Shown here piece after piece: positions 4,823 through 42,296 of a stretch of 64,000 nucleotides of DNA. Positions within the stretch are counted from its first letter, which is position 1, and the number at the start of each line of letters is the position of its first letter. Position numbers and translations under genes: made by a program. The notes beneath the pieces are model-generated. The model was not told where the DNA came from. It ran no database searches and saw only the letters and a list, made by a program, of their open reading frames with translations. Origin of the DNA: Octopus vulgaris (Eukaryota); NCBI GenBank assembly GCA_951406725.2, contig OX597823.1, positions 110,794,001 through 110,858,000 on the forward strand. Direction: 5' to 3'.

Positions 4823-5653
4823 CTAGAAAGAGAAAAAAATATGTGTATGGATGAGGACAGCTGCAAAAAAAGTGCTGAGCTCTATCTGTGGAGGGAACCT
4901 GGGGAAGGGGTAGACCCAGGAAGACATGGAACGAAGTGGTGAGAAAGGATCTTCAGATGCTAGGCCTGACTGAGGAAATGACGAAGGACCAGCTGTCATG
5001 GCAATTTGCTGTACTTGAGATGACGCATAAAGCTATGTAAAATCTTTGTCAATCATGCATGATAGATGAATATGTGATTCAAATTACATAAGAACATTAT
5101 GTGATGCCATGTAAAAACATCCAGCACATTCTGTAAAGTGGTTGGGGTTAGGGTGGGCATCCACCTATAAAAACCATGCCAGATAAGGCTGGAGTCTGGT
5201 GCAACCCCCTGCCATGCCAATGCCATAAGAACAATATGCTGGTATAGGCTGGGTGGTGTGACCAGAGCTGGCACGGCAGGGGGTTGCACCAGACTCCAGC
5301 CTTATCTGGCATGGTTTTTATAGGTGGATGCCCTCCCTAACCCCGACCACTTTACAGAATGTGCTGGATGTTTTTACATGGCATCACATAATGTTCTTAT
5401 GTAATTTGAATCACATATTCATCTATCATGCATGATTGACAAAGATTTTACATAGCTTTATGCGTCATTTCAAGTACAGCAAATTGCCATGACAGCTGGT
5501 CCTTCGTCATTTCCTCAGCATCTGAAGATCCTTTCTTACCACTTCGTTCCATGTCTTCCTGGGTCTACCCCTTCCCCAGGTTCTCTCCACACTTAGAGCT
5601 CAGCACTTTTTTTGCAGCTGTCTTCATCCATACACATATTTTTTTCTCTCTAG
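4823..5653. repeat. Long inverted repeat (arms 4823-5219 and 5269-5653, 49-nt spacer)
   Basis: Arms are reverse complements with about 9 substitutions, one 10-nt indel and one 2-nt indel; each arm holds an RTE LINE C-terminus (VEGTWGRGRPRKTWNEVVRKDLQMLGLTEEMTKD) plus family-C sequence. Confidence 0.97.
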
Positions 5654-7659: not shown

Positions 7660-7719
<60 letters not shown>

Positions 7720-8490
7720 GATAAATGGCAAGAAAAACCTCTCTATGGCAAATACCCAAAGAGAGCGAATAATGCAGATGTTGACAAAGCCCCGACCCAT
7801 CAATGGCTAATGGCCTCTGGCTTAAAATCTGAAACAGAAGGGTTTATCATAGCAGCTCAAGATCAATGCCTACCAACAAGGAACTACCAGGCCAACATAT
7901 TAAAGAACAGCAGTAGCCCAACATGTCGTGTATGTCAACAACAAAATGAAACCATTGATCATGTTGTCTCCAAGTGCAGTCTTCTAGCGCCTACAGAGTA
8001 TCTCAACAGGCATGATAGAGCTGCACAATATATTCACTGGGTAATTTGCAAAAACCTGGATTTGCCCCATGAAAAAAACTGGTGGGAACACAAACCACCT
8101 CCAGTGCTTGAAAATGACCACATCTCACTCCTCTGGAACTTCCCCATTCAAACTGACAGAAAAATAGATGCAAATAGGCCAGACATCATATTGAAAGATT
8201 TCAAACAAAGAACATGCCTCCTCGTTGATATGACTGTCTCAATCGATATAAACGTATCTGTCAAGACCTACCAAAAACTGAGCAAATATAAAGATCTTGA
8301 AATAGAAATCAGCAAAATGTGGAACCTGAAGACTAAAACAATACTTGTTGTCATAGGTACCCTGGGAATGATAGCAAAAGGGGCTGATTGCTACCTAACT
8401 CAGATACCAGGAAACACCAAAATGGCAGAAATTCAAAAGATAGTGCTCATGGGAACTGCTCATATCCTACGCAAAATACTTTCTATGTAA
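7720..8490 (+). pseudogene. C-terminal part of R4/Dong ORF: CCHC zinc knuckle plus restriction-like endonuclease
   Basis: ETEGFIIAAQDQ, CRVC...ETIDHVVSKC (CCHC), YLNRHD, NRPDIILKD, KLSKYKDL motifs; RT domain absent (truncated). Confidence 0.9.
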
Positions 8491-21231: not shown

Positions 21232-21290
<59 letters not shown>

Positions 21291-21294
<4 letters not shown>

Positions 21295-21766
21295 ACAATT
21301 GAGGGTAAAACTAATTAATTAATCAATTTCACCAAGTGTTCAGTATGTAAAAGGACCATTTAAGGCGAATTCAAAATATTACATTATATAATTAGGGCTT
21401 AGTAAAATAAATTACTTTGCCACATACTGAACTTAGTAGAAATAGCAGCCAAAAAAATTTTCTTAGCATTTCTACTACTTAAAAGAAAATTTCTCTCAGA
21501 TAATGTTTACTCCAGACAGCCCACGAAGGTTTGGAGGTAAATACAGAAAAATATCACAAGTACATAGATCGTTTGAGTACGTCAACGTTTCAAGATTAGC
21601 CAAATAAAACCAGCATTTCTTTCGTCAGCTCAAAATTTCTTAATTTGGATTTGGAAATACTAAAAAGAAGGAACTTTACCTATCAGCGAACTTGTCGCTT
21701 CAGATGAACCACTCCAACTAACAGTATCAACAAATTCAAAATGCGCAGGCGTAAATCTCTGCAATT
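21291..21766 (-). mobile_element. Hammerhead-bearing non-coding element (family K), TA-flanked
   Basis: Homologous to 29210-29964 but with different end points; (TA)n on both sides. Confidence 0.75.
21572..21634 (-). ncRNA. Type I hammerhead ribozyme
   Basis: tttgag-CUGACGA-aaga[22 nt]tctt-GAAA-cg-ttga-cg-UA-ctcaaa: full core with stems I, II and III and a GUA cleavage triplet. Confidence 0.75.
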
Positions 21767-28071: not shown

Positions 28072-29129
28072 CTTTGAAGCCTATTTTGTAACATATTATA
28101 TTTGAAGTGCTGTTTGTTTTTTGCACCTTTACACTAAATCCCCACCCCTTTCGCTCTTTTTCCTGGTTTCACACAACGAAATATTACAACTAAATAAGAA
28201 CGTCTTATCTATTTAACTATACAATCAATACAATTTTTAAAATAAAGCACTAAATTGATGTAAAGCTACGTATTTCTTTTAATCAAAATAATAAAAGCAA
28301 CTGTAATTTAGATGTAATCTCATATGTATATATTCTGTTTTCCTTTTCAAGCTGTTTATATATAACATATCTGAGTATAATTTAACTGAGTGTAAATATA
28401 ATTGTTTAAGATAACAACCAAAAATATTCTTTTAGTGTTTTTGTAGGTTAGCAGCAAAAATCTTACTATTTATCTGTTCTATCTTTATGGGTTTTCTCAT
28501 AACATATCGATATAATAAAAGGATAAAATCGCTTTTGTTTCTAAAAACTCTTATCACCTTTACCCTGAATATTTCTATTTCATACCCATTTCTCTCACTT
28601 TGTTAATATGTTTTTAAATAGATTCATTGAGTACACCTATTAAAACCGATATAAATGTTTTTTTATGTATCTGTTGTTACATTGTTAATTTAATTTCTTT
28701 TTGCTTGCTAGATCTTAAGGATGGGACAGTGTCCATAACCTTTGCACGCCTTGAAGACAAGTGAAAGTGATGTCATTACCTTTCTGCTTAAATTTAGTAA
28801 ATATATATCTGTAGGAATGATGTGTGTGGGTGAAGGAGGAATTCCGGAAGGACATATCCAGTGAAAGAAGGCCTGGGCACAGTGATTAATTAGTGCAGAG
28901 CCTGAAGCAGTTAACAATAACAAGAGTGATATGAGGAGGAGATGGGAGTGGAACAGGTAACATGACCCCCCTGCCACTTCTCGAAAAAGAAGTCACTATA
29001 CTAGTAGCAGAAAAGGCACAGATAGGTGACAGTGACACCTAGTGAACAAAAGCTGGAATTCATTTATCAGTGACTTTATGATGATTATTTGGATGTAGTG
29101 TTATGTGTGAATATATATATACAAATATA

Positions 29130-29209
<80 letters not shown>

Positions 29210-29210
<1 letters not shown>

Positions 29211-29962
29211 GACGTTCTCAAATGATCTTTGTACTTGTGATATTTTATTGTTTTTACCTCCATATCTTCGTGAGTTATTTTTGAGTAAACATTATCTGAG
29301 AGAAATTTTCTTAAAGTAGTGGAAATGGCTAAAAAACTTTTTGGCTGCTATTTCTAGAAAGTTCAGTATGTGGCAAAGTAATTTATTTTACTAAGCCCTA
29401 ATTATATAATGTAATATTTTGAATTCACCTTAAATGGTCCTTTTACATACTGAACACTACTTTGGTGATATTGATTAATAACTAATTAATTTTACCATCA
29501 ATTGTTGATATTATAATTCCTTTCTCTCTGTTCTATTGCTTCGGTTCTCACCGTTAAAATATATGTTTACTAGATAACTCACGTGGGTGGAAGGGGAGAG
29601 AACATGAATCTTCGCTCGTACATTTTGAATTTGCTAGTACTGGCAGTCTGAGCGTGTTCGTCTGAGGGGTATGTTCATTCTTTTAGTGCTTTCAAATCCA
29701 AAATTAAGAAATGTTGAGCTGACGAAGGAAATGCTGAGTTTTATTTGGCTAATCTAGAAACGTTGACGTTCTCAAATGATCTTTGTACTTGTGATATTTT
29801 ATTGTTTTTACCTCCATATCTTCGTGAGTTATTTTTGAGTAAACATTATCTGAGAGAAATTTTCTTAAAGTAGTGGAAATGGCTAAAAAACTTTTTGGCT
29901 GCTATTTCTAGAAAGTTCAGTATGTGGCAAAGTAATTTATTTTACTAAGCCCTAATTATATA

Positions 29963-29964
<2 letters not shown>
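29210..29964 (+). mobile_element. Family K element: 554-nt unit with 201-bp terminal direct repeat, TA-flanked
   Basis: 29210-29410 identical to 29764-29964; no long ORF; hammerhead motif at the repeat junction. Confidence 0.85.
29714..29775 (+). ncRNA. Type I hammerhead ribozyme (weakened stem II)
   Basis: ttgag-CUGACGA-agga...tcta-GAAA-cg-ttga-cg-UU-ctcaa. Confidence 0.6.
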
Positions 29965-30021
<57 letters not shown>

Positions 30022-30027
30022 ATAATA

Positions 30028-30865
30028 ATATTAAGGAGTAAATCCAAATTTACAGGGAAAAATTTGATTTAGGATTAAATCCAATTTCACAGTATAAATA
30101 TAAATTAAATTAGAGATAAAACCACTATTAGGCAAATCAAACGATGAAAAACATAAACCAAAACATAAAAATAAACATAATTAATATAATATACAAAATA
30201 TATATATAACCTATAAAATTTAAAATTTAAATAATTTAAATTTTAAATTTTATATTTTACTAGCAGTATCGCCCGGCGTTGCTCGGGTTTGTAAGGGAAA
30301 TAACTATATAAGCATTTTTAGAGAGTTACTTCCCTTATAAATTCGGGCTTTCTTAGCCATTTTTGTTTTGGTGTCTTCAAGCCATGAAGTCGTTGTTCTA
30401 AAAGAACGCTGGTTTCCTTCACAACGCATTACGACGTTGATTTCTTTACACTCCCTTCCCCACAGCTTCACGAGGGAGGGAAGGGGGAGAAGCAAACAGG
30501 TGCAGCTGTGAGCGTGGACGCCAACTCCGCCGCCATCGACACACGATGCATTTTATGCATTAAAATGGAATAAAAAATGATGTTAAATTATTTTTAAAAT
30601 CGTAGACTCATCGTTGACACGCGCTAATAGTCAGACGGGCTCGATATGAATCACGACTATAAGATACCCGAATTTGGTTAAACTGCACCGCAAAATGTGG
30701 GAGGAGTTAGGAATCTAAATCGAAGGGGACAGACACTCACACAACTAGAGTTTTATATATATAGATATATTTTGTATATTATATTAATTATGATTATTTT
30801 TATGTTTTTCATTGTTTGATTTGCCTAATAGTGGTTTTATCTCCAATTTAATTTATATATATATT
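30028..30865. mobile_element. Family D element with inverted-duplicated end, split by a Helitron
   Basis: GGAGTAAATCCAAATTTACAGGGAAAA start shared with 21112, 38675 and 58398; about 30100-30208 is inverted at about 30766-30860. Confidence 0.7.
30260..30765 (-). mobile_element. Complete non-autonomous Helitron (506 bp)
   Basis: 5' TCTATATATATAAAA; 3' hairpin CCCGAGCAACGCCGGG followed by CTAG; inserted between A and T with no TSD. Confidence 0.9.
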
Positions 30866-31044: not shown

Positions 31045-31101
31045 TTTACGAACGCGTTTCTAGATTAGAAATATAAACTCCATGTCTTTCATCAGCGTAA
31101 A
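31045..31101 (-). ncRNA. Minimal type I hammerhead ribozyme (Penelope-like)
   Basis: tttacg-CUGAUGA-aaga...tcta-GAAA-cgcg-UU-cgtaaa; palindromic ACGCGU in place of stem III. Confidence 0.65.
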
Positions 31102-41690: not shown

Positions 41691-42296
41691 CTTCCTTTTG
41701 AGCATTTAGCCTCATGGAGGCAAGTGGCTGAGTTTCTCTGAGCATTGGGCCTCATAGAGGCAAGCTGGCTGAGTTCTTTTGAGCATTGAGCCTCATGGAG
41801 GCAAGTTGGCTGAGTTCCTTTGAGCATTGGACTACATGGAGGCAAGGTAGCTGAGTTCCTTTGAGCATTGGGCCTCATGAAGGCAAGTGGCTGAGTTCCT
41901 TTGAGCATTGAGCCTCATGGACGCAAGGTGGCTGAGTTCCTTTGAGCATTGGGCCTCATGGAAGCAAGGTGGCTGAGTTCCTTTGAGCATTGGACCTCAT
42001 GGAGGCAAGCTGGCTTAGTTCTTTTGAGAATTGGGCCTCATAGAGGCAAGTGGCTGAGTTCCTTTGAGCATTGGACTTCATGGAGGCAAGGTAACTGAGT
42101 TCCTTTGAGCATTGGGCCTCATGAAGGCAAGTGGCTGAGTTCCTTTGAGCATTGGGCCTCATGGAGGCAAGTGGCTGAGTTCCATTCGAGTGTTGGGTCA
42201 CACAGAGGCAAGGTAGTTCAGTTCCTTTCAAGCATTGGGCCCCATAGGGGAAAAGTTGCTGAGTTCCTTTCGAGTGTTGGGCCTCATGGAGGCAAG
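41691..42296 (+). repeat. Minisatellite, about 15 x 40-41 bp
   Basis: Unit GAGTTCCTTTGAGCATTGGGCCTCATGGAGGCAAG(G)TGGCT. Confidence 0.95.

Follow-up and report, generated by a model that had tools for sequence, protein, structure and literature searches.

How did a 201-bp sequence come to lie in two exact copies with a period of 554 nt, and was DNA or RNA the template for the second copy? We addressed this question in a window of 64 kb of the Octopus vulgaris genome, the whole stretch of DNA that was analyzed and to which all positions refer unless a locus is named. An earlier note on this DNA had described the direct repeats and their (TA)n flanks, and both descriptions hold: the maximal exact repeat pairs 29210-29410 with 29764-29964 on the plus strand, and TA microsatellites lie to the left (29111-29209) and to the right (29965-30018) of the insertion. 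The first repeat also begins where it was said to begin, 7 nt 5' of the position equivalent to the predicted ribozyme cut, and its leading T could belong to the TA run. Mapping of the ends places 29210-29964 (plus strand; locus L001) at unit +557 to +199 of the reference frame. We read this stretch as a single-arm retrozyme insertion of 1.36 units, truncated at the 5' end, in which the first copy of the repeat, which retains just 7 nt of the ribozyme on the 5' side of the cut, would come from a second pass of reverse transcriptase (RT) and the second copy from the first pass. There are no LTRs; the terminal repeat represents part of one additional turn around the unit.

The monomer from cut to cut (29217-29770, plus strand) is 554 nt long, has a GC content of 32% and is non-coding, its longest stop-free stretch being 51 codons. 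It is predicted to be strongly self-paired (z -7.2 for the linear fold). Folded as the predicted circle, the focal unit reaches z -7.7, and all six natural units that were folded (6/6, 12 shuffles each) range from -5.0 to -8.7. In these circular minimum-energy structures the ribozyme is not in its active fold.

The predicted ribozyme is a type I hammerhead at 29714-29775 (plus strand), with a GUU triplet and a predicted cut after 29770. Stem I pairs 29714-29718 with 29771-29775 (5 bp), and the core consists of CUGACGA (29719-29725), GAAA (29757-29760) and GUU (29768-29770). Stem III has 3 bp, and stem II is extended, carries an internal loop and opens with an A-A pair in the focal copy. A search with Rfam returned no hammerhead at the gathering threshold in the window and none among the 12 matches at E <= 10 in 29100-30100, so that the assignment rests on the motif and on covariation. 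We aligned 25 representatives of the family, chosen by hand from 62 distinct motifs. In this alignment 92.6% of the cells are paired, the core is invariant or nearly so, and 8 of the 17 pairs show two-sided changes, with compensatory changes in stem I and in the outer part of stem II. The covariation score, of a kind that related sequences inflate, is 0.419, compared with 0.154 for shuffles and at most 0.151 for slid controls. The complete hammerhead claimed at this place from the sequence is thus confirmed by motif reading and by covariation across subfamilies.

In 24 of the 25 aligned members stem II opens with a non-standard pair, which is therefore a trait of the family rather than decay of the focal copy. 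By analogy with the axolotl motif HHR_Amex2, which has U-U and is likewise described as non-standard at this base of stem II (PMC7229834), it may slow cleavage. The focal copy contains one complete hammerhead plus 7 nt, which differs from the two consecutive complete hammerheads that 10.64898/2026.07.22.740005 takes to mark active copies. Such pairs are present at other loci of the family, for example L055, L109 and L140. As read from the sequence, the 7 nt before the first cut could pair as 5 bp of stem III (29210-29216 with 29757-29764). Because this remnant could form stem III with the downstream ribozyme, the focal 1.36-unit copy might still release a full monomer.

We searched the whole assembly (2.8 Gb, 227 contigs) for relatives. 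The ribozyme core has 445 exact matches genome-wide and a 20-mer of the 3' part of the unit has 2,737, while the reversed controls have none, which indicates that the hammerhead family is not a product of chance. A looser motif for the superfamily returned 5,010 matches (none for the reversed control) and a looser pattern for the ribozyme returned 285 relatives. We extracted 26 distinct natural units from cut to cut, 554 to 570 nt long and falling into five clusters. Head-to-tail arrays reach 5.9 units, and their internal units can be identical across 500 compared columns. The genome hosts a non-coding family of about 560 nt with thousands of arms. Assembled contigs of three presumed-RNA runs and of one unlabelled run cover the unit, contigs being uninformative on level, strand, ends and circularity.

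By its sequence-level features, which at the level of the family fit the definition, this is a metazoan non-LTR retrozyme, that is, a new family of a known kind. In common with the metazoan non-LTR retrozymes described in the available parts of PMC7229834 (Cervera and de la Pena 2020) and 10.64898/2026.07.22.740005 (Li, Clavereau and Pollet 2026), it has a tandem unit that is non-coding, low in GC and equipped with a single type I hammerhead, a monomer predicted to be self-paired, and Penelope-like elements (PLEs) in the same genome. Its units of 554 to 570 nt are longer than the 150-450 bp given in the former report and within the 51-972 bp given in the latter. It differs also in its extended stem II with a conserved internal loop and in its mostly short and often two-armed insertions. 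Finally, the circle was shown by northern blot in those systems, whereas here it is a prediction. No publication on this octopus family was found in the openly searchable literature, a scope that lies outside subscription journals and Repbase/Dfam.

The window hosts a further, independent copy at about 21284-21765 on the minus strand. It belongs to a sister subfamily with a GUA triplet and a 563-nt unit, is 88% identical to the focal copy and flanked by (TA)n on both sides, and spans 0.85 unit, from +376 through the ribozyme to +293. The earlier note was right that this copy reads through the ribozyme. Its 3' end is not arbitrary, as had been supposed, but is one of two ends that are fixed throughout the family. 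Elsewhere in the window, a weak 42-nt match to the ribozyme region at 31055-31096 (minus strand) is possibly a distant relative. The window also contains an inverted repeat of 250 nt, 98% complementary with a spacer of 49 nt (4970-5518), a minisatellite of 14.8 copies with a 41-nt period (41692-42296), and an open frame at 7660-8490 (plus strand) that we take to resemble the C-terminal zinc-knuckle/restriction-like endonuclease part of a non-LTR retrotransposon.

To describe the ends of the insertions, we mapped 105 loci onto repeated natural units and dropped eight as non-independent (L040, a local duplicate of L038, and seven hitchhiker loci), as well as the hitchhiker part of L152. The remaining 97 loci comprise 168 arms. 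Arms were retained above 80% identity for the counts of ends and above 85% for divergence, private variants and crossings of the cut. We also defined a less-biased sample of 47 loci, namely those with the 20-mer in the first 93 Mb of contig C1. The 3' ends are far from scattered: measured from the predicted cut, site A (near +200) accounts for 66 of the 168, site B (near +293) accounts for 83 and only 19 lie elsewhere, so that 149 fall within the two windows (+186 to 212 and +283 to 296), which were fixed after inspection of the data. Both sites are TA-rich, and 116 of the 149 ends run into (TA)3 or more. The 5' ends, by comparison, are spread over 70 distinct positions in 83 arms and show no ceiling at any one position. 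The claim that copies start and stop at arbitrary points of the unit therefore stands for the 5' ends and fails for the 3' ends.

In the focal copy, which is single-armed, the 3' end lies at site A (29950-29967, plus strand; internal equivalent at about 29396-29413), where RT would have started, and site B is internal (29500-29515, plus strand). The copy at 21 kb ends at B. The stretch from A to B, about 90-100 nt, is referred to below as the tail. Two-armed insertions, with arms placed back to back, account for 31 of 49 in the less-biased sample. When both outer ends lie at A or B, one arm ends at A and the other at B in 46 of 50 cases, compared with 25 expected (P-value 2e-10), and the same pairing occurs in 24 of 27 cases in the less-biased sample. 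At the inner junctions, the opposite arms overlap by at least 2 nt in 34 of 59 cases.

This architecture is that of PLEs. Their insertions are described as partial tandems with an inverted 5'-truncated arm, a tail of 30-40 bp at one end and microsatellite targets (PMC8557442; Craig et al. 2021). In vitro, the Poseidon PLE PAc was shown to cleave AT-rich DNA on both strands, to extend both, and to initiate reverse transcription at two internal RNA sites, the interval between which is the tail (PMC11167929; Frangieh et al. 2024). The octopus family shares with these elements the two internal RT starts downstream of a hammerhead, the tail at one end, the partial tandems, the inverted 5'-truncated arm and the AT-rich or (TA)n targets. 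It differs in lacking an RT or GIY-YIG ORF, in the length of its tail (about 90 nt compared with 30-40 bp in PMC8557442) and in the position of its starts, which are found about 200 and 293 nt downstream of the cut compared with about 85-92 nt in PAc, as computed from the coordinates in PMC11167929. Fixed ends of this kind are not among the features described for retrozymes in the available parts of PMC7229834 and 10.64898/2026.07.22.740005.

The earlier note had held that fixed collinear ends, together with a duplication unique to this locus, would speak for a simple local tandem duplication. The first half of this expectation is borne out by the 3' ends, but the duplication is neither local nor unique. 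Moreover, fixed internal start sites are a signature of PLEs (PMC11167929), and the fixed 3' ends therefore do not refute copying from RNA. In the fold derived from the alignment, a long stem encloses site A with a small covarying hairpin inside it, and a second hairpin lies just before site B. These elements are kept across subfamilies, with two-sided changes in 5 of 29 pairs (aligned regions include L003:2199-2369 and L207:2775-2951). In this model the conserved stems are a candidate recognition signal for the PLE protein. A pseudoknot around site A was dropped, since the alignment fold places the strand in question in the hairpin before site B.

Given this likeness, the unit could itself be the pseudo-LTR or the 3' end of an autonomous PLE whose copies are truncated. 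The shared insertion architecture (PMC8557442) is in line with such an origin, as is the resemblance of Xenopus retrozymes to PLE pseudo-LTRs (10.64898/2026.07.22.740005). For the present copies we nevertheless regard it as very improbable. Upstream of the ribozyme, every long arm returns to the unit after 554-570 nt, and no arm in the 97 loci enters an ORF. The earlier note had proposed to look for linked RT/GIY-YIG ORFs; none was found at the 97 mapped loci or at 30 relatives, where no arm runs on into an ORF, and the family thus lacks what distinguishes an autonomous PLE. Apparent fusions with neighbouring PLE fragments at L139, L140, L186, L188 and L205 proved to be separate insertions. 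Judged by its insertion scars, the octopus family inserts like a PLE without being an autonomous PLE.

We then searched for a partner. Of 6,136 GIY-YIG candidates 150 were scored, and 16 of these 150 lie in an open frame of 781 codons. The frame encodes both an RT and a GIY-YIG domain, together with a cysteine linker like that which PMC8557442 attributes to Neptune/Nematis. This Neptune-like PLE ends in (TA)n. A tail of about 34 nt is found at 3 of its 13 terminal ends and none at the other 10, and one locus has tailed and untailed arms in opposite orientation. Upstream, this PLE carries a further open frame, 359 codons long, whose start lies in the tail region (L121:906-1985), and a minimal, degenerate hammerhead is found some 70 nt ahead of its short end. 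The resident element thus resembles the retrozyme family in its (TA)n ends, pseudo-LTR, optional tail, inverted arms and apparent youth, and differs in being autonomous, in its 3' sequence, in its degenerate minimal hammerhead and in its shorter tail. No sequence shared with the unit was detected by blastn or nhmmer in 50 PLE loci taken from the top GIY-YIG matches (150 of 6,136 scored), and because of this the partner is proposed from architecture. On the strength of that analogy, the Neptune-like PLE is a candidate partner of the retrozyme family.

Several further observations concern PLEs and the superfamily. A PLE supposed to end at site B was rejected, as that element runs more than 1.5 kb further. 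Superfamily copies adjoin PLE insertions at 3 of 48 PLE loci not selected for this property (L068, L087, L136), small numbers that fit shared TA targets. One ribozyme-less two-armed retrozyme insertion lies inside a PLE-type element that has an RT/GIY-YIG-like ORF, within the 3' region rich in microsatellites, and has been amplified as its passenger (L097, L101, L107, L143, L152, L158, L161, L163; L211:1075-2553, minus strand). The ORF of the carrier has no significant Pfam match, and by its motifs we take the carrier to be Hydra-clade-like.

We next asked what the template was. In the less-biased sample, 28 of 75 arms exceed one unit, with the period unchanged. The RT could have copied cleaved linear monomers and, on reaching a 5' end, have jumped to the 3' end of that monomer or of a different one. 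The closest relative of the focal copy (L002) starts within 1 nt of the cut and the focal copy 7 nt from it, as this would predict, but L002 is a biased example, coming from loci selected for covering the query. In the less-biased sample only 1 of 64 encounters with the predicted cut ends there, compared with 3.2 expected, and 142 of 143 crossings read through without an indel within 3 nt. Since stops are not in excess at the cut and the crossings are clean, jumps between cleaved ends are disfavoured, and we hold this route to be improbable. Of the RNA-templated reading in the earlier note, what survives is a retrozyme-type element that reads through its ribozyme, with a circular or single-unit template as the best fit; the template jump at cleaved ends fares badly. 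Its two alternatives, retrozyme circle or Penelope, are moreover not exclusive, as our results suggest that Penelope-type machinery copies a retrozyme.

The passes within a locus are closely related. Divergence within the locus is lower than the mean between loci in 50 of 51 tandem and in 46 of 46 opposite-arm loci, although only 22 of 51 and 16 of 46, respectively, show higher identity within the locus than to the closest other one. More informative are the variants that are strictly private, that is, seen in no other sampled locus, some of which unsampled loci could carry. We found 53 of them, at 26 loci, that are common to all passes, including 27 shared across inverted arms, and 169 that occur in one pass only. 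A>G and T>C changes make up 30 of the 53 shared variants (57%) and 31 of the 169 single-pass variants (18%; P-value 3e-7). Because the two spectra differ, the shared variants are unlikely to be mutations that arose after insertion and were spread by conversion. A>G and T>C are found 13 and 17 times among them, with no strand bias, which leaves a footprint of A-to-I editing on the sense strand unsupported. The focal locus has no private shared variant, and its nearest relative, L002, differs at 10 substitutions.

These data bear on the origin of the 201-bp repeat by local tandem duplication or gene conversion in DNA. The two repeats are perfectly identical and adjacent, as expected from such an event. 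At the level of the family this origin is effectively refuted by the many arms that exceed one unit at the same period, and by private variants that are common to inverted arms and have a spectrum unlike that of post-insertion changes. For the single locus taken by itself the case against it is weaker, and overall we consider it the least probable of the explanations. Since private variants are common to all passes of a locus, we infer that one unit yields all passes. The best fit to this pattern would be a ligated circle, the simplest single-unit template, which we prefer to local duplication.

A more serious competitor retains the PLE machinery and replaces the circle with a linear RNA of several units that has not been cut and that is transcribed from a small number of homogeneous source arrays; its ribozyme would be slow or idle. 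Multi-unit arrays do exist, the base of stem II is non-standard, and the clean read-through of the cut fits such a template equally well; in Xenopus, 8 of 9 dimers failed to cleave (10.64898/2026.07.22.740005). Linear copying, however, only shortens arrays and offers no way for a new variant to reach every pass, as the 53 private variants require. Several subfamilies each retain multi-unit arrays, and the 5' ends lack the ceiling at one position. We consider a linear multimer rather unlikely, though clearly less so than the other explanations considered above.

The circular template is thus the one we retain, and the focal copy is a 5'-truncated insertion of the non-coding ~560-nt hammerhead family. 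The RNA of this family probably cuts itself and is circularised, and a Penelope-like RT/GIY-YIG enzyme acting in trans probably copies it into (TA)n. In the proposed sequence of events, the unit RNA would cut itself and then be ligated into a circle, and the endonuclease would cut both strands of a TA repeat. One DNA end would prime RT at the internal site A and the other end at the internal site B, and each arm would circle the unit until RT falls off. The two cDNA 3' ends would then be joined by microhomology, or one arm would be lost. For the focal copy, RT would have started at site A (29964), completed one circuit and halted during the second, 7 nt beyond the cut, and the 201-bp duplication would be the consequence.

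The pairing of A with B may say more about the enzyme. In vitro, PAc used mainly uncleaved RNA as its substrate, and the start sites did not differ between the strands (PMC11167929). Such behaviour, which does not predict the A/B pairing and needs no circle, counts against the model; opposite arms in the octopus use different sites, while PAc in vitro showed no difference between strands. As a tentative model, to which we give somewhat less than even weight, a PLE enzyme, probably a dimer, might prime both strands of one cut from two structurally defined sites about 90 nt apart on one circular retrozyme RNA. The tail would then reflect a strand-specific division of labour in vivo. The arrangement of unit length, stems around both sites and ribozyme, conserved across subfamilies that are about 70% alike, would be the minimal cis-signal for PLE mobilisation.

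The kind of element is already known, and the octopus family is a well-quantified further example rather than a new system. On the basis of co-occurrence and phylogeny, earlier work proposed that PLEs mobilise animal retrozymes and that the retrozyme circles undergo rolling reverse transcription (PMC7229834; 10.64898/2026.07.22.740005). The scars of the octopus insertions show the features by which a PLE was characterised biochemically in vitro, namely two internal starts and extension of both strands (PMC11167929), and the pattern of variants points to a single-unit template. Together, these PLE-type scars and variants make a direct test possible, with a 560-nt RNA and the intact resident PLE protein.
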